Positions 5,313 through 34,389 of a DNA stretch of 64,000 nucleotides are shown here, in pieces. Where the stretch lies: NCBI GenBank assembly GCA_019119875.1, contig DWWG01000012.1, positions 25,214 to 89,213 of the forward strand. Reading direction: 5' to 3'. Below the pieces are notes generated by a model, which was given only the letters and a program-made list of their open reading frames with translations, made no database searches and was not told the DNA's origin. Position numbers and translations under genes: made by a program. The first letter of the stretch is position 1, and every line of letters starts with the position of its first letter. Origin of the DNA: Candidatus Dietzia intestinigallinarum (GTDB lineage Bacteria > Actinomycetota > Actinomycetes > Mycobacteriales > Mycobacteriaceae).

Positions 5313-6785
5313 TCAGCGGGCGCGGGCGAGATCCTTCGGCCCGGCATCTCCTGCCGGCGGGGTCGGCGCCCCGGTGGCGGTGTGGTTCGGCCGGTGTCCG
5401 CTCCTGATCAGCAACACCACGAGGGCGCCGGCGACGGCGGCTCCGGCGCCGATGAGGAAGCACAGCCGGAACATCTCCTGGGTGGGGGCCTGGACGCCGC
5501 CGCCGATGTCGATCAAGCGGCTGGTGAGGACGATGGCCATCACCGAGCCGGCGATGGTCGTGCCCATGGAACGCATCAACGAGTTCAGGCCGACACCCGC
5601 CCCGGCCTCGGAGGCCGGGGAGTTCTCGAGGATCAGCGTGGGCATGGCGGCGTAGCCGATTCCGACACCGGCGGAGGCGATGCACGTGGAGACGAGCAGC
5701 TGCCACGGTGCGTGGGCGAAGAACGCGGCGACGAGGTATCCGACCGCGATCACCCCCGCGCCCAGGGCGAGCGTGGTGCGGCCGCCGAGCCGGGTGAGCA
5801 TCCGGCTGGAGATCGGGGTGAACGCGAGCATCATCAGGCCTCCGGGGGCCATCCACATCCCGGCCTCGAGCATCGACTGACCGAGTCCGTAGCCGGTGGA
5901 TTCGGGCAGCTGGAGGAGCTGGGGGACGACGATCGACTGCGCCATCATGCCGAACCCGACGAGGAGCGCGGCGATATTGGTGAGCAGGATGGGGCGGCGG
6001 GCGGTGGTCCGCAGGTCGACGAGCGGCTGGTCGTGCCGCGTCTCGTAGAGGCCCCACGCGAGCAGGACCGCGGCGCCGCCGATGACCGCGAACAGCGTGA
6101 CCGGTGAGGTCCACCCCCAGTCGCCGCCCTTGGAGATGCCGCCGAGGACCGCCACGACGCCGATCGCCAGGCCGATGGCGCCCACGGGGTCGAACCGGGC
6201 CCGGGCCACCGGCCGCCGGTGGGGCAACACGACCAGGGAGAGCACGGCCATGACGGCGGCGAGTGCGCTGGAGACCCAGAACAGGGTGTGCCAGTCGTGA
6301 TCCTGGGCGATCCAGGCGGAGAGGGGGAGCCCGAGCGCGCCTCCCACGCCGAGCGTGGCGCTGATACCGGCGACCGCGGAGTTCTGCATGGTGGGTGGGG
6401 CGATCTCCCGGACGAAGCTGATCGCCACGGGGACATAGCCCATCGCCAGGCCCTGGAGGGCGCGCCCGACCAGGACCGGGACGAGCGACGACGACACGGC
6501 GCAGATGAGTGAGCCCGCCAGCAGGATGAGTGCGGAGGCGACCAGAACCGGTTTACGGCCTCGGATGTCGGCCAGGCGCCCGGCCACCGGCATCGCCACG
6601 CCGCCCGCGAGGAGGGTCGCCGTGACCACCCACGCCGCGTTGTCCGGTGCGGTGTCGAGCAGTCGGGGCAGTTCGGGCTGGATCGGGATCACCAGCGACT
6701 GCATGAGCGAGGCGCACATGCTGGAGAAGCCGAGGACCAGGATGACGGCCAACGGGGCCGTCGCGCGGTCGCGGGGGTGGTTCAT
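5313..6785 (-). CDS. MFS transporter (DHA2-like, about 14 TM)
   Basis: ATG 6785 with RBS GAAAGGA; motif A GRLADIRGRKPVL; many hydrophobic helices. Confidence 0.9.
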   Translation of the reverse strand: MNHPRDRATAPLAVILVLGFSSMCASLMQSLVIPIQPELPRLLDTAPDNAAWVVTATLLAGGVAMPVAGRLADIRGRKPVLVASALILLAGSLICAVSSSLVPVLVGRALQGLAMGYVPVAISFVREIAPPTMQNSAVAGISATLGVGGALGLPLSAWIAQDHDWHTLFWVSSALAAVMAVLSLVVLPHRRPVARARFDPVGAIGLAIGVVAVLGGISKGGDWGWTSPVTLFAVIGGAAVLLAWGLYETRHDQPLVDLRTTARRPILLTNIAALLVGFGMMAQSIVVPQLLQLPESTGYGLGQSMLEAGMWMAPGGLMMLAFTPISSRMLTRLGGRTTLALGAGVIAVGYLVAAFFAHAPWQLLVSTCIASAGVGIGYAAMPTLILENSPASEAGAGVGLNSLMRSMGTTIAGSVMAIVLTSRLIDIGGGVQAPTQEMFRLCFLIGAGAAVAGALVVLLIRSGHRPNHTATGAPTPPAGDAGPKDLARAR

Positions 6786-13266: not shown

Positions 13267-13953
13267 TCAGTCGAGGACTGTACCGTCGTCGAGGTGGGAC
13301 AGTGAGCCGTTGTCGGGCAACTCGCCGGTGGCGAGGTACACCAGCCGGTTGGCGATGCTCACCGTGTGGTCGGCGAAACGCTCGTAGTACCGGGCGAGCA
13401 GGGCGAGGTCGACGGCGGCCACGGAGCCGTACGGCCAGTCCTCGTCGGAGACCTGCTGCATCAGGTTGGAGTGGAGTCCGTCCACGGCGTCATCCTGGGC
13501 GTCGAGCATGAGCGCCTTCTCCACGTCGCGCTCGGCGAACAGGTCGGTCAGCTGTCGAGCCATGGCCCCGTCCCGTTCGGCGAGCTCGCGGATGAGGGGG
13601 ACGACGGCCTCGGGGACCACAGGATTGGGGTAGCGGCGGCGCGCGACCCGGGCGATGTGACCGGCGAGCGCGGCCATGCGGGTGAAGTGCTCGACGATGT
13701 AGATCCCCGACACCACCTGGCGCAGGTCGCGCGCGACGGGCGCCTCGAGGAGGAGCAGCTCGAACGCGTGCTGCTCGCTGACCTCGCGCAGTTCCTCCAA
13801 CTCGGCGGCCCCGTCGATCACCTCTGTCGCCGCGGTCTCGTCGCGTTCGAGTAGGGCTACGGTCGCACGATCGAGCAGTCGGGTGTTCGTCTCGCAGAAG
13901 CGAACGAGCTGATCAGAGAATTCGTCGAGTTTGGAACGGAAGACGGTACGCAT
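13267..13953 (-). CDS. phoU: phosphate signalling protein PhoU
   Basis: MRTVFRSKL..., EAPVARDLR, DDAVDGLH, RYYERFADH. Confidence 0.93.
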   Translation of the reverse strand: MRTVFRSKLDEFSDQLVRFCETNTRLLDRATVALLERDETAATEVIDGAAELEELREVSEQHAFELLLLEAPVARDLRQVVSGIYIVEHFTRMAALAGHIARVARRRYPNPVVPEAVVPLIRELAERDGAMARQLTDLFAERDVEKALMLDAQDDAVDGLHSNLMQQVSDEDWPYGSVAAVDLALLARYYERFADHTVSIANRLVYLATGELPDNGSLSHLDDGTVLD

Positions 13954-14059
13954 GCCACAACTGTAGTGAAACGAGTGTTGACCGGCGGCGTCGTTCTCCC
14001 AGTGTTCACCGGCAGACCACCTGGCGGGGGCACCCGGAGCGGCCTGCGGAGCGGCAGGA

Positions 14060-14089
14060 TAGACAGAACGGTCTGTTCGTGGCTACGGT
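14060..14089 (+). promoter_or_regulatory. sigma70-type promoter (-35 TAGACA, 18 nt, -10 TACGGT) overlapped by McbR-like operator TAGAC-N6-GTCTG
   Basis: TAGACAGAACGGTCTG at 14060-14075, 9/10 match to C. glutamicum McbR consensus TAGAC-N6-GTCTA. Confidence 0.6.
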
Positions 14090-14121
14090 TGGGCACCGAG
14101 CCGTCAATGAAAGGACATGAG

Positions 14122-14664
14122 ATGACCCTCTTCCTGTACGAGACGATCCCCTCTCAGGAGCAGCAGGCCGATCCTTCTGCGCTCATCGACGCCATCGGCG
14201 CCGCGCTGACGGGTGCGGGTGCCGAGGTCATCGAGACCCAGATCACCAAGGGCGCCGCCCGGATCTTCACCATCGTCGAACTGGCCGACGGCCCGGACGG
14301 CGCCTGCGCCACCGAGGCACCGGCCCTGGACGCCGCAGAGCTGGGCGCAGCTGAGGTCACCGAGCCCGCGCAGGTCCGCCTGGTGGGAACCGACCTCGAG
14401 ACCATCAAGGCCGCCCGCCCCGAGGCCGGCTACCTGGTGGAGTGGGATATCCCGGCCGAGATCGACATGGACACCTACCTCACGCGCAAGAAGGAGAAGT
14501 CCCCGAAGTACGCCGAGATCCCCGAGGTCTCGTTCCTGCGCACCTATGTCCGCGAGGACACGGACAAGTGCCTGTGCTTCTACAACGCTCCCGACACCGA
14601 CGCGGTGGTCCGGGCGCGTGAGATCGTGTCCACTCCCATCTCGCGTCTGCACGAGCTGGCATGA
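14122..14664 (+). CDS. DUF4242-domain protein (about 180 aa, N-terminal extra domain)
   Basis: RBS AAAGGA; C-terminal YLVEWDIP...VSFLRTYVREDTDKCLCFYNAPDTDAVVRAR is a DUF4242/SCO4226-like pattern. Confidence 0.8.
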   Translation: MTLFLYETIPSQEQQADPSALIDAIGAALTGAGAEVIETQITKGAARIFTIVELADGPDGACATEAPALDAAELGAAEVTEPAQVRLVGTDLETIKAARPEAGYLVEWDIPAEIDMDTYLTRKKEKSPKYAEIPEVSFLRTYVREDTDKCLCFYNAPDTDAVVRAREIVSTPISRLHELA

Positions 14665-15797
14665 GCGCGCCCACGGCCAGCACTCTCACCCCGGATCTCG
14701 GCGCCCCGCGGGCGCGTCTTATCGCCGGCGATCTCGGTTCCGTCGACGCGGCGGAGCTTCGCGCGGTGATCGACTCGATCGCCGCGCGGGCCTCCGCCCT
14801 GGACCGCGCCGACGCGGACCTGCGGGAGGACATCTCCGCACTCGCCGGTCTCGGTCTCTTCGACGTGGACCGTACGCCGGTCCCCGTCGCCGCGACGATC
14901 ATCGAAGCCGTGGCGACGGAGAGTCTGGCCGTGGCGTTCGGCGCCTGGGCGCAGCGGATGACCGCGGCCTACCTGCGGCACGCCGCCGACCGGTCCGAGG
15001 CAGCCCAGCGGAGCTACCGGGCGGTCGCCGACGGCACCCGACCGGGCGTGACCGGCATGGCCGCCGCGCAGCGGCAGGTCGTCGGACTCGGGAACGTACC
15101 CATCACGGCCACCCCGGTCGAGCGCGGCTACCAGATCGACGGGCCGATCGCGTGGGCGTCCAACGTGTACCCGGACAGCACCATCGTGCTGGCGGCCAAC
15201 ACCGCGGACGGCCGCAGCCTCGTCCTGACCTTCGAGGCCTCGACCCCCGGCGTCGAGATCCGTTCCGCTCCGGACCTTCTGGCGCTCAACGCGACCGCCT
15301 CCACGATGATCGGACTCGACGGCGTCGTGGTTCCTCACGAGCAGGTGCTGGGGGAGGATCTGGGGGACTTCCTGTCCGGCGTGCGACCGCAGTTCCTCGT
15401 CCTGCAGGCCGCCTTCTGCTCCGGCGTGGGTGCACGCTCGCTCACCGAGGCCGCCGGACGACTCGAGGGGCTCGGTGCCTTCTACTCGGACGAGCACGCC
15501 GCGCTGTCCGAACGGCATGACCACATGCACTCCGAGCTCCATCGACTCGCCGCGGCGCCGGCGGAGACGGATGCGGAGACGGAGGCTATGCTGACCGACT
15601 TGCTCCTCCTGCGCCTCGACGGCGCGGAGATCGCCCCCGCCGCGACACGGCTCGAGGCGGTCCTGTGCGGCGGCATGGGGTACGCGCAGGGGGCACCCGC
15701 CAACCGCCGTATGCGCGAGGCGGCCTTTCTCCCGGTGCAGTCCCCGTCGCAGTCGCAGCTGCGCTGGGAGCTGGACCGACTCGGGGTGGAGGCGTGA
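14661..15797 (+). CDS. acyl-CoA dehydrogenase-fold flavoprotein (non-canonical)
   Basis: ATGA overlap; GYQIDGPIAWASN, ALNATAS, GGMGY, RRMREA ACAD-fold motifs. Confidence 0.82.
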   Translation: MSAPTASTLTPDLGAPRARLIAGDLGSVDAAELRAVIDSIAARASALDRADADLREDISALAGLGLFDVDRTPVPVAATIIEAVATESLAVAFGAWAQRMTAAYLRHAADRSEAAQRSYRAVADGTRPGVTGMAAAQRQVVGLGNVPITATPVERGYQIDGPIAWASNVYPDSTIVLAANTADGRSLVLTFEASTPGVEIRSAPDLLALNATASTMIGLDGVVVPHEQVLGEDLGDFLSGVRPQFLVLQAAFCSGVGARSLTEAAGRLEGLGAFYSDEHAALSERHDHMHSELHRLAAAPAETDAETEAMLTDLLLLRLDGAEIAPAATRLEAVLCGGMGYAQGAPANRRMREAAFLPVQSPSQSQLRWELDRLGVEA

Positions 15798-16543
15798 GCT
15801 CGGCGGTCCTCGAGCGTCCGGTTGCCGTCAGTGTCACCGGTCTGCAGCACCGCCTCCCCGGGGGACGGACACTGTTCGACGATCTCGAGCTGCGGGTCCG
15901 GGAGGGGGAGTCGCTCGTGCTCCTGGGCCCGTCGGGAGTGGGTAAGTCGACGCTGTTGCGACTGCTGGCGGGACTCGAGCACCCCGCCGGTGGAGAGCTG
16001 CGGATGGGCTCACGTCCCACGGGCGGAGGCGGTGGGCACTCGTACGCGGTCGTGTTCCAGAAGCCCCTGCTCTACCCGTGGCTGTCGGTGCGCGAGAACG
16101 TCGCCCTGGGCGGCCGGTTCCGCGCACTTCGCGGCCGGGTGGACTCCTCGTACGTCGACGAGTTGCTCACCCATTTCGGGATCTCGGACCTGGCCGACGC
16201 CCGGTCCGACCAGATCTCGGGTGGCCAGGCCCAGCGGGTCGCGGTGGTCCGCGCAGCGGCGACGCGTCCGGAGATCCTTCTCCTCGACGAGCCCTTCAGT
16301 GCACTGGACCCGGTGACGCGCGCGGACTCACAGCGATGGTTGGTCGGCGTGACCGCCGATCTCGGCGTCACGACGATAATGGTGACCCACGACGTCGACG
16401 AGGCTCTGGTGGTGGGCTCCCGCATCGCGTTGCTCGGTTCGTCCGGCCGCGTTCAGCAGGAGTGGGCCAACCCCTCCCACGGCACCGGCGATTCGGATCC
16501 GGTCCTCCGAGAGGACATCCTGGCCGCTTACCGAACGGCCTGA
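15794..16543 (+). CDS. NitT/TauT-family ABC transporter ATP-binding protein
   Basis: GTGA overlap; GPSGVGKST, VFQKPLLYPWLSVRENV, ISGGQAQR, LLLDEPFSALD, VTHD. Confidence 0.93.
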   Translation: MSSAVLERPVAVSVTGLQHRLPGGRTLFDDLELRVREGESLVLLGPSGVGKSTLLRLLAGLEHPAGGELRMGSRPTGGGGGHSYAVVFQKPLLYPWLSVRENVALGGRFRALRGRVDSSYVDELLTHFGISDLADARSDQISGGQAQRVAVVRAAATRPEILLLDEPFSALDPVTRADSQRWLVGVTADLGVTTIMVTHDVDEALVVGSRIALLGSSGRVQQEWANPSHGTGDSDPVLREDILAAYRTA

Positions 16544-16551
16544 GCGCGGCT

Positions 16552-17739
16552 GTGAAGAAGGATCCGGGGGCGCGCGGCCCCGTACTCGACCGACGCTCGC
16601 TACTGCGTACCGGCGGCGCACTCGCGGTGGGGGCCGGAGCCCTCGGCGGCGCGGCGACGCTGGGCAACCTCGTCTCCGCGGCGACCGCCCCGCGTGGGAC
16701 CGCGACGGAGGAACTGCGGATCGGCTACCTGCCGATCACCGACGCCGCGCCGCTTCTCGTCGCACACGGCGACGGCTACTTCGAGCAGCAGAAGCTCATC
16801 GTCGGACGACCGGTGCTCTTCCGCTCCTGGTCGTCACTCATGGAGGCCTTCCTCACCGAGCAGGTGGACCTCATCCACCTGCTGATGCCGTCGGCAGTGC
16901 AGCTGCGTTACGTCCTCGGCGCGGACGTGAAGGTGGTGAGCTGGAACCACACCGGCGGCGGCGCGATCACCGTCGCTCCGCACATCAACGAGGTCTCTGA
17001 GCTCGCCGGCACGCAGGTCGCGATCCCGGGCTGGTGGTCGATCCACAACATGCTCCTGCAGCGGGTGCTGCGTTCGAACGGACTCACGCCGGTCGCCCGG
17101 AGGTCCCCGAGCCGATCCGAGGGCACCGTCGAACTGGTCGTCATGGGCCCGGCGGACATGATCCCGGCGTTGGCCACCGGGTCGATCTCCGCGTTCACCG
17201 TCGCCGACCCCTTCAACGCCGGAGCCGTCGCCCGGGGCGTCGGTTCCCTGCACATGCTCCTGGACGAGGTGTGGCGCGACCACGCCTGTTGCGTGACGGT
17301 CGTGCAGGAGCGTCTCGTCGACGAACGCCCGGACACGGTCCAGGCGTTGGTCGACTCGGCGGTCGCCGCGCAGTTGGGGATCCGGGCCGATCGCTCGGCT
17401 GCCGCCGCGATCCTGTCCGGTCACGGCTACCTCCCGCAGCCCCCGGCGGCCGTGGAGGTCGCCATGGCCGGGACGGTCGCCGATCCCGCGGGAGGCCCCG
17501 ACCGGCCCCGGATCGACTTTCACCCGTACCCGTTCCCGAGCTTCACCGAGGAACTGGTCCGCCAGATGCGCCAGACGGTCGTCGACGGTGAGACCCGATT
17601 CCTGGACGGTCTCGACCCGGCGACGGTTCACCGCGAACTCGTCGACGACCGGTTCGTCCGGGCCTCGATCGAACGACACGGCGGTCCGGCCGCCCTCGGA
17701 CTCCCCACCTCGCTCACCCGACACGAACGGCTGATCTAG
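16552..17739 (+). CDS. NitT/TauT (NrtA/CmpA-like) ABC substrate-binding protein with twin-arginine signal
   Basis: DRRSLLR Tat motif plus hydrophobic stretch; LRIGYLPITDAAPL, WRDHACCV; start codon uncertain (GTG 16552). Confidence 0.88.
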   Translation: MKKDPGARGPVLDRRSLLRTGGALAVGAGALGGAATLGNLVSAATAPRGTATEELRIGYLPITDAAPLLVAHGDGYFEQQKLIVGRPVLFRSWSSLMEAFLTEQVDLIHLLMPSAVQLRYVLGADVKVVSWNHTGGGAITVAPHINEVSELAGTQVAIPGWWSIHNMLLQRVLRSNGLTPVARRSPSRSEGTVELVVMGPADMIPALATGSISAFTVADPFNAGAVARGVGSLHMLLDEVWRDHACCVTVVQERLVDERPDTVQALVDSAVAAQLGIRADRSAAAAILSGHGYLPQPPAAVEVAMAGTVADPAGGPDRPRIDFHPYPFPSFTEELVRQMRQTVVDGETRFLDGLDPATVHRELVDDRFVRASIERHGGPAALGLPTSLTRHERLI

Positions 17740-18636
17740 ATGACTGGTACGCACGCGCACTCCCCCTCGGGGGACGGTCCCGGCACGGCTGAGCTCTCCA
17801 CGCCCGCCCCCGTGTCGTCGGTCACCGGCCCGGCGTCGCCCTCCCGCGGTGTGCGGTTCCGGAACCGCGGCGCCGTTTCCGGATCGAGCCCGGTGGCCCG
17901 ATGGGGTGCAGGTCTACTCGGTCTGCTGCTCGGGCTCGGGGTGTGGGCTGTGCTGACGTCCGGACTGGTGACCGACGACCCGGTCATCACCGGGATGTCG
18001 CCCGTGAAGACCTGGTCGGGGTTCGCTGATCTCCTCGACCGCGGGGTCCTGCTCTCGGATGCGGCGGTGAGTCTCTACCGACTGGTGTCCGGGCTCGCGG
18101 TCGCCTCGCTGCTCGGGATCCCGCTCGGTCTCTGGCTCGGACTGCGCAGGCGCGCCGAGGCGGTGGCGGGCCCCCTCGTTCAGTTTCTGCGGATGGTCTC
18201 CCCGCTGTCGTGGGCCCCCGTGGCGATCGCGGTGTTCGGTATCGGCAGCGAGCCGGTGATCTTCCTCGTGGCGGCAGCCGCGGTCTGGCCGATCATGCTC
18301 TCGACCTCGTCCGGCGTGCACGCGGTGGATCCGGGCTTTCTCGACGTGGCCCGGACCATGGGGGCGAACGGCTGGGAGCGACTGACCCGGGCCGTGATCC
18401 CCGCGGTGCGGCCCTCGATCCTCGGCGGCATCCGGCTGGCGCTCGGCACCGCCTGGATCGTGCTGGTGCCCGCCGAGATGCTCGGCGTGCGGTCGGGACT
18501 CGGATATCAGATCCTCAACGCCCGCGACCAGCTCGCATACGACCAGGTGATGGCGGTGATCCTCGTGATCGGCGTGCTCGGGTTCGCGCTCGATTCACTG
18601 TCCCGACTGCTGCTTCGCGGCGGCGCCGCGCGGTGA
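17740..18636 (+). CDS. NitT/TauT-family ABC permease
   Basis: SPLSWAPVAI, EAA-type loop ARTMGA, WIVLVPAEMLG. Confidence 0.92.
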   Translation: MTGTHAHSPSGDGPGTAELSTPAPVSSVTGPASPSRGVRFRNRGAVSGSSPVARWGAGLLGLLLGLGVWAVLTSGLVTDDPVITGMSPVKTWSGFADLLDRGVLLSDAAVSLYRLVSGLAVASLLGIPLGLWLGLRRRAEAVAGPLVQFLRMVSPLSWAPVAIAVFGIGSEPVIFLVAAAAVWPIMLSTSSGVHAVDPGFLDVARTMGANGWERLTRAVIPAVRPSILGGIRLALGTAWIVLVPAEMLGVRSGLGYQILNARDQLAYDQVMAVILVIGVLGFALDSLSRLLLRGGAAR

Positions 18637-33618: not shown

Positions 33619-34389
33619 TCAGGGGGCGAGGAGCCCCGGCAACACCTGGCCCGCCGGCGCCCGGAGATGGACCGACACCTCGCGTCCGAGGCCCGACGCG
33701 CCCGGATTGACCTCCACCACGGGGATCCCCGCATCGGCGGCGACGCCGGGGAGCGAGGCCGCCGGTTGGACCAGACCGGAGGTCCCCACCACGAGCACGG
33801 CGGCGGCCGAGGAGACCGCCGAGACCGCCGCCTCCCAGGGGGCGGAGGGGAGCATCTCGCCGAACCAGACCACACCGGGCCTGGCCCTCCCGTCACACCT
33901 CGTGCAGGTGGGAGGGGTGAGACTGTCCGCCGGCTCCGGCGGCGGGGGACCCGCGTCCATCGGGGTGCCGCACGTGTCGCAGCGGTGCGCGAACAGGCTG
34001 CCGTGCACGTGGTGGACGAGTGTCGAACCGGCGCGCTCGTGGAGGTCGTCGACGTTCTGGGTCACCACCACGACGTCCCGGTGGTCCTGTGCCCGTGCCA
34101 CGGCCAGATGCCCGGGGTTCGGCCGGGCGCCGGAGATCAGGTGCTCGCGCCAGCGGTACCACGCCCAGACCATGTCCCGGTCGCGGCGCCAGGCCTCCGG
34201 TGTGGCGAGGTCGGTGGGGTCGTAGCGCTCCCACAGTCCGGTCTGTGCGTCCCGGAACGTGGGCACGCCGCTCTCGGCGCTCATCCCGGCACCGCTGAGC
34301 ACGACGAGAGGCCCGTGGCCGGAGAGGGCCTGACGGGCCTTGCTCATCTGTTCACGGAAACCGGGGGTCTCCGCTTCACCGGAGGTCAT
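33619..34389 (-). CDS. cobB: NAD-dependent protein deacylase (sirtuin, class III)
   Basis: GAGMSAESGVPTFR, TQNVDDLHERAG, HGS, two CxxC, GTS, NP. Confidence 0.93.
   Translation of the reverse strand: MTSGEAETPGFREQMSKARQALSGHGPLVVLSGAGMSAESGVPTFRDAQTGLWERYDPTDLATPEAWRRDRDMVWAWYRWREHLISGARPNPGHLAVARAQDHRDVVVVTQNVDDLHERAGSTLVHHVHGSLFAHRCDTCGTPMDAGPPPPEPADSLTPPTCTRCDGRARPGVVWFGEMLPSAPWEAAVSAVSSAAAVLVVGTSGLVQPAASLPGVAADAGIPVVEVNPGASGLGREVSVHLRAPAGQVLPGLLAP

Follow-up and report, generated by a model that had tools for sequence, protein, structure and literature searches.

A predicted McbR-type operator at the promoter of a putative sulfur-scavenging operon in Dietzia

The operon and its promoter region

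The window, i.e. the whole stretch of DNA that was analysed (64,000 nucleotides, G + C content of about 70%), carries at 14122-18636 five genes whose start and stop codons overlap or abut, and which were therefore considered as one transcription unit. A 168-nt intergenic region lies between this operon and a divergent phoU-like gene. The features of the locus are the following.

13267-13953, minus strand: divergent phoU-like gene (Pfam PhoU; TIGR02135), outside the system
14060-14075, no strand assigned: predicted operator, 16-bp inverted repeat TAGACAGAACGGTCTG, McbR-type TAGAC-N6-GTCTA with one mismatch
14060-14065, plus strand: -35-like hexamer TAGACA, 5/6 to TTGACA, predicted from the sequence
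14084-14089, plus strand: -10-like hexamer TACGGT of the TAnnnT type, 8 nt 3' of the box
14109-14115, plus strand: ribosome-binding site GAAAGGA, invariant across 12 Dietzia genomes
14122-14664, plus strand: gene 1, SCO4226-like (formerly DUF4242), 180 aa (Pfam PF14026, 3.1e-19)
14661-15797, plus strand: gene 2, putative divergent ACAD-fold flavoprotein, 378 aa; its start overlaps the gene 1 stop (ATGA)
15794-16543, plus strand: gene 3, ABC transporter ATPase (Pfam ABC_tran); its GTG overlaps the gene 2 stop (GTGA)
16552-17739, plus strand: gene 4, NMT1/SsuA-family substrate-binding protein with a Tat-like signal (NMT1_2, 2.4e-40; NCBIfam SsuA_fam, 4.6e-26)
17740-18636, plus strand: gene 5, ABC permease of the SsuC/TauC/SaoP type (Pfam BPD_transp_1; NCBIfam), abutting gene 4

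The SCO4226-like protein of the window is 96% identical to its D. aurantiaca counterpart, and exactly the same protein is present in metagenome assemblies, among them assemblies from chicken gut. Public runs containing the window consist of metagenomic DNA, plus a single RNA run that is available as assembled contigs only. The gene 2 protein has no Pfam match at 1e-3 and only faint similarity to SfnB, to short-chain ACADs and to the desulfurization enzyme TdsC. The protein seems to be a flavoprotein of the ACAD fold that has diverged very far, and its gene is kept with the operon in over 70 genomes.

On the phoU side of the intergenic region, two 11-nt direct repeats (GTTCTCCCAGT and GTTCACCGGCA, 13993-14014) resemble PHO boxes of the Streptomyces type. 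They are located 5' of the phoU-like gene and rank second in conservation among the blocks of this region in the 12 Dietzia genomes. A -10-like TACAGT (13960-13965, minus strand) lies 6 nt before the phoU-like ATG, so the phoU mRNA is probably leaderless. These elements suggest a PhoP/RegX3-type control of phoU.

The initial annotation had placed the inverted repeat TAGACAGAACGGTCTG over a -35-like TAGACA located 18 nt from a -10-like TACGGT, and inspection of the sequence confirmed this arrangement. The palindrome is imperfect (TAGAC versus CAGAC) and ends 46 nt upstream of the ATG of the SCO4226-like/DUF4242 gene (14122). Its left half-site consists of the same bases as the TAGACA hexamer, and the 18-nt spacer covers 14066-14083. 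A scan of the window for E. coli-type promoters matched none at the box, because TACGGT agrees with TATAAT at only 3 of 6 positions. TAnnnT is an actinobacterial form of the -10 element, which TACGGT fits. The same geometry (box, 8 nt, TAnnnT) is common to the window, to the orthologous loci of Tomitella, Nocardia and an actinomycete MAG (L032), and to a Dietzia cysI-like promoter. In Tomitella, Nocardia and the MAG, a leaderless GTG is found 6-7 nt past the -10, which anchors the -10 assignment in these three cases. A search of the window for riboswitches and structured leaders yielded no Rfam match and no structure, and the predicted 5' UTR of the operon is short (about 25 nt) and unstructured.

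Conservation and chance level of the box

The consensus on which the initial annotation relied, TAGAC-N6-GTCTA for McbR of Corynebacterium glutamicum, was quoted correctly and is the one published (PMC2723105). Boxes were counted against this consensus in the window and in 100 shuffled windows. With at most one mismatch, 1 box was found for 0.25 expected, and at least one such box occurred in 23 of the shuffled windows; a lone box in 64 kb, judged by itself, is thus within chance and not significant. With 2 mismatches, 21 boxes were found for 7.7 expected; this excess was set aside as a source of operators, since it consists mostly of strings of the TCGAC...GTCGA type. A near-palindrome at 34233-34246 (ACAGTCCGGTCTGT) which resembles the inner part of the box was likewise considered as probably fortuitous, because it is inside long overlapping ORFs.

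The signal of the box stems from the comparison of genomes, not from statistics on a single site. Among 13 Dietzia-type genomes compared, all with the same phoU/operon junction, TAGAC-N6-GTCT[AG] is present at the same spot in 12, and two genomes (L004 and L005) have a perfect TAGAC-N6-GTCTA. In the alignment of 12 Dietzia genomes, no other 16-nt block of the intergenic region is as well conserved as the box, whose mean column identity is 0.90 (0.95 for the arms) versus 0.64 elsewhere in this region; the GTCT inside the promoter spacer is invariant, as are the A and the T of the -10. Two genomes with odd labels, a MAG named 'uncultured Microbacter sp.' (loci L007, L131 and L267) and 'Rhodococcus sp. 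IEGM 1408' (loci L009 and L253), have the Dietzia gene order and proteins 87-92% identical to those of Dietzia, and both labels look wrong.

A scan of the genome collection with TAGACAGANCGGTCTR gave at least 9 Dietzia loci among the 120 matches listed. As Dietzia accounts for roughly 0.02% of the species in the collection, the motif is hugely enriched in this genus among the matches listed. The conserved sequence could in principle be just a -35 and spacer read by RNA polymerase, with no repressor involved, or a chance palindrome: TAGACA is 5/6 of TTGACA, and one match per 64 kb is within chance. Yet both half-sites are conserved, including the spacer GTCT where promoters are unconstrained, and the palindrome is found again at promoters unrelated to this one and, beside a TetR gene, in other genera. 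Such an origin of the conservation is hardly credible.

The register of the palindrome was also considered. In the window sequence a second register, ACAGAAC|GGTCTGT (14063-14076, 6/7 paired), gives a slightly better palindrome. It was rejected as the true site since it is lost in L004, L005 and L007, where TAGAC-N6-GTCTA stays; judged by sequence conservation, the conserved register is thus the one first annotated. Many loci of Prescottella, Rhodococcus, Gordonia and Mycobacterium contain a 20-bp AGAC-periodic palindrome, TAGACAGAC-NN-GTCTGTCTA (e.g. L158 3910-3929, L205 3950-3969 and L195 3894-3913), which corresponds to two overlapping 16-bp boxes with a 4-nt offset. Both registers can be derived from it, which explains that two are seen; the 20-bp palindrome may accommodate two repressor dimers or alternative registers.

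Candidate repressors in Dietzia and in other genera

In Tomitella, several Nocardia and the actinomycete MAG, an extended box (TAGACAGAYCGGTCTA) is located 215-360 nt upstream of the orthologous gene, between this SCO4226-like gene and a divergent TetR gene. In Mycobacterium sp. RTGN4 no leader ORF intervenes, and the same box and divergent TetR gene are found immediately 5' of the SCO4226-like gene. An alignment of these TetR proteins, hereafter neighbour-type TetRs, was used to scan genomes and retrieved 131 relatives, the best 80 of which were used for counts. The best 80 loci belong to Tomitella, Nocardia, Rhodococcus, Mycobacterium, Gordonia, Saccharopolyspora and Streptomyces. The SCO4226-like/ACAD/ABC operon is divergent to the TetR gene in 72 of these best 80, and a box with at most one mismatch is found in 59, nearly always within the shared intergenic region. 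A divergent TetR neighbour, the box and the constant distance from box to TAnnnT together indicate that the box is a TetR operator. Neighbour-type TetRs are uncharacterised and sometimes automatically named AcuR or AcrR.

This local pair is absent in the window, where the divergent neighbour of the operon is phoU-like and not a TetR gene. A search for TetR genes of all kinds was negative for the window, for 22 other Dietzia loci and for 2 Corynebacterium loci; both genera are also absent from the best 80 of the 131 relatives and from the first protein search.

McbR is a TetR-family global repressor of sulfur metabolism in C. glutamicum, reportedly described by Rey and co-workers in 2003 and 2005. 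In that species, control of the sulfonate genes is largely exerted through SsuR, an activator itself controlled by McbR. According to PMC2580772 and PMC1266029, cysI, ssuR and cysR are under McbR control; in PMC2580772, McbR sites often lie between the -35 and the -10, and mcbR itself is included in the regulator table as controlled by McbR.

The profile of the neighbour-type TetRs was searched against 1.8 billion cluster representatives (50% identity), and the McbR cluster (P0127, 209 bits) was among the ten best clusters. Its relatives are Corynebacterium proteins, including P0308, which its source names 'global transcriptional repressor of sulfur metabolism, TetR-family [Corynebacterium glutamicum]' and which was on this basis considered as C. 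glutamicum McbR. This protein has 44-48% identity to neighbour-type TetRs over about 185 aa, and the recognition helices are near-identical (VAKASLYSLFGSKD in McbR, VARASLYSSYGSKD in the neighbour type). The closest relatives of McbR thus seem, from sequence comparison, to be dedicated neighbours of the SCO4226-like/ACAD/ABC operon across the Mycobacteriales.

Control by McbR, as first proposed for the window, implies a Dietzia ortholog, and one was found. Through the representative P0128, 200-aa Dietzia TetRs were retrieved (P0417 and P0419, both from D. aurantiaca, as well as P0411 and P0413), which share the recognition helix with McbR as well as an insertion, PxPxTDxE..I, that neighbour-type TetRs lack. 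Identity to McbR is 41%, and only about 40% in the effector domain. The gene order around the Dietzia gene (PseudoU_synth_2, Usp, Transgly_assoc, [TetR], DUF2020) corresponds to that of C. glutamicum (PseudoU_synth_2, LLM, Usp, Transgly_assoc, [mcbR], YidC, sortase, DUF2020, two-component system). The McbR-like gene is present in all 13 box-carrying genomes; within the main Dietzia group, 22 genomes encode it, with 78-99% identity to the protein of D. aurantiaca, and two more distant Dietzia MAGs carry a protein at 54-55% identity. Contigs spanning the whole gene were also found in three metagenome runs that hold the window, and this co-occurrence, together with its presence in relatives, leads us to infer that the window's own genome carries it. 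In a neighbour-joining tree, Dietzia grouped with Corynebacterium with 31% bootstrap; as this tree support is weak, the case for orthology with McbR is made by synteny and by the insertion common to both. No autoregulatory box (at most 2 mismatches) was found upstream of the Dietzia repressor gene, where the only trace is a conserved GTCTGT half-site overlapping the -10 of this gene; autoregulation is not strictly defining for McbR-type membership.

The box could alternatively be bound in Dietzia by a second TetR, of the neighbour type and encoded elsewhere in the genome, which would serve this operon locally as its dedicated repressor and respond to a ligand of its own. Such a protein is the divergent neighbour in 72 of the best 80 of 131 loci in other genomes, 59 of which have the same box, and a divergent Dietzia copy could fall outside these best 80. 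Against it, three protein searches retrieved no neighbour-type TetR in Dietzia, the only family members found there being the syntenic McbR-like proteins, and in Dietzia the box is present at several loci that are not linked, sulfur genes included, which fits a global and not a local regulator. A second repressor is therefore considered improbable, and the McbR-like protein is retained as the candidate.

A contig from Logan (L235, 71% G + C) encodes at 5357-6594 a TetR with the McbR-type insertion (P0122), divergent to a lone SCO4226-like gene and separated from it by a box, CAGACCGGTCGGTCTG. This arrangement may be intermediate between the local and the global ones.

Sulfur link, proposed mechanism and comparison with known systems

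The initial annotation had derived sulfur control from the McbR consensus, and the same box does occur at sulfur genes of Dietzia among the 120 matches listed. One is upstream of a NIR_SIR sulfite reductase gene (box, 8 nt, TACCCT, 7 nt, ATG), and in two Dietzia species another is between the genes of an SsuD-like luciferase-type monooxygenase and a ROK regulator (box, 10 nt, TACCGT or TACCCT, then ATG). These two groups mirror the McbR regulon of C. glutamicum, with its control of cysI, ssuR and cysR. Further boxes among the matches listed are located between korA and a TAP-like alpha/beta hydrolase gene in five Dietzia species (a perfect box in each: L070, 2920-2935; L097, L122, L131 and L133) and next to a LigB-type dioxygenase gene, i.e. 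at genes with no obvious sulfur role. The two Corynebacterium matches listed precede a Sulf_transp-TusA gene and a FAD oxidoreductase gene. Near the box of korA, which encodes a 2-oxoacid:ferredoxin oxidoreductase, a conserved CTGTAACAGGTT motif was observed, with no obvious -10 at the usual distance.

A second line of evidence comes from short ORFs that separate the box from the SCO4226-like gene in Tomitella (L014 5751-5843, ending in ...AACCRCRCCCCC) and Nocardia (L020 5823-5903, ending in ...AACRHQR). These leaderless ORFs match the NCBIfam model NF042934 ('putative leader peptide') above its cut-off, and that of Tomitella has a weak match to the Cys-rich leader Ms5788A. Leaders of the Ms5788A type are cysteine-responsive attenuators in M. 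smegmatis (bioRxiv 10.1101/834739). The Tomitella and Nocardia leaders look like attenuators of this kind stacked onto the TetR operator, and the presence of Cys leader peptides at orthologous operons independently supports the sulfur link of the operon. In the window, with no leader, no Rfam match and a short unstructured 5' UTR, control appears to take place at transcription initiation, by the operator alone.

The McbR ortholog of Dietzia might also answer a signal other than sulfur. Nickel is hinted at by the Pfam name of gene 1 ('nickel responsive protein SCO4226-like'), and phosphate by the phoU neighbour and the PHO-box-like repeat 46 nt upstream of the box; redox state is a third candidate, the effector domain and that of McbR share only about 40% identity, and boxes are also present at the korA/hydrolase and LigB genes. 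These hints are outweighed by the boxes at the sulfite reductase gene and the SsuD-like/ROK pair, the SsuA type of the transporter and the Cys leader peptides that precede orthologous operons, while the PHO-like repeat is placed for the phoU promoter and not for that of the operon. A non-sulfur signal is thus regarded as quite improbable.

Sequence 14060-14075 is, with good probability, an McbR-type operator predicted to block the promoter of a sulfur-scavenging operon. This reading combines a conserved box, a published consensus, the TetR partners of sister genera and, in Dietzia itself, an McbR-like gene in conserved synteny; boxes at Dietzia sulfur genes, Cys leaders in Nocardia and Tomitella and the lack of a riboswitch in the window point the same way. 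We infer the following course of regulation. The Dietzia McbR ortholog, a TetR-family repressor encoded elsewhere in the genome, would bind the palindrome, and the bound dimer would cover the -35 hexamer and the spacer, keeping RNA polymerase off the operon (14122-18636). Upon accumulation of a small-molecule effector, which is S-adenosylhomocysteine for McbR in C. glutamicum, the repressor would leave and the operon would be transcribed, its expression rising alongside that of the box-carrying sulfite reductase and sulfonate-type monooxygenase genes. Because the box is shared with these genes, the operon is most likely a system for the uptake and oxidation of an organosulfur compound under sulfur shortage.

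It is also possible, although we hold this more tentatively, that the SCO4226-like/ACAD/ABC operon was the ancestral core target of the McbR subfamily. Most Mycobacteriales, together with some Pseudonocardiales and Streptomycetales, would then have kept a dedicated divergent repressor. In the lineage of Dietzia and Corynebacterium, the repressor gene would have moved away, the box would have spread to further promoters, including those of cysI and of ROK regulators, and the global McbR sulfur regulon would have arisen in this way. Under this scenario, what McbR-type repressors first sensed should be explained by the ligand and substrate of the operon.

To our knowledge, the McbR sulfur regulon has so far been described in Corynebacterium only, and the present data would extend it to Dietzia. 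They also give a first regulatory context to an operon built on an SCO4226-like/DUF4242 protein and a very divergent ACAD-fold protein, and point to a role in organosulfur scavenging. A Rhodococcus strain was stated to have no McbR homolog (PMC8557817). Close relatives of McbR as predicted local regulators of the same operon in Nocardia, Rhodococcus, Mycobacterium and Gordonia offer a testable route to sulfur regulation in these genera, which is relevant to biodesulfurization strains.

Three known or related systems can be compared with the window. Mycobacterial Cys attenuators of the Ms5788A type control sulfur-related operons, and NF042934 members precede the operon in Nocardia and Tomitella; in contrast, the window has no room for a leader, the box being too close to the ATG (46 nt). 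The neighbour-type TetR pairs of Nocardia, Rhodococcus, Mycobacterium, Gordonia, Tomitella and Saccharopolyspora share with Dietzia the operon, the box and the 8-nt distance from box to -10. They differ by a TetR gene that is adjacent and apparently dedicated to the operon, whereas the Dietzia repressor gene is unlinked and the box present at several loci; by TetRs with a conserved RGC motif in place of the McbR-type insertion; and, in Nocardia and Tomitella, by the Cys leader peptide that Dietzia lacks. Compared with C. glutamicum McbR, the Dietzia system belongs to another genus and family (Dietziaceae), its repressor is 41% identical, no autoregulatory box was found, and the SCO4226-like/ACAD/ABC operon is absent among the McbR-regulon genes named in the accessible parts of PMC2580772 and PMC1266029. 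Both systems have in common the consensus and a repressor homolog with the same recognition helix and gene neighbourhood; the position of the operator in the core promoter, as predicted for Dietzia, is also that of McbR sites, and the target kinds overlap in sulfite reductase, a ROK regulator and sulfonate-type monooxygenases.
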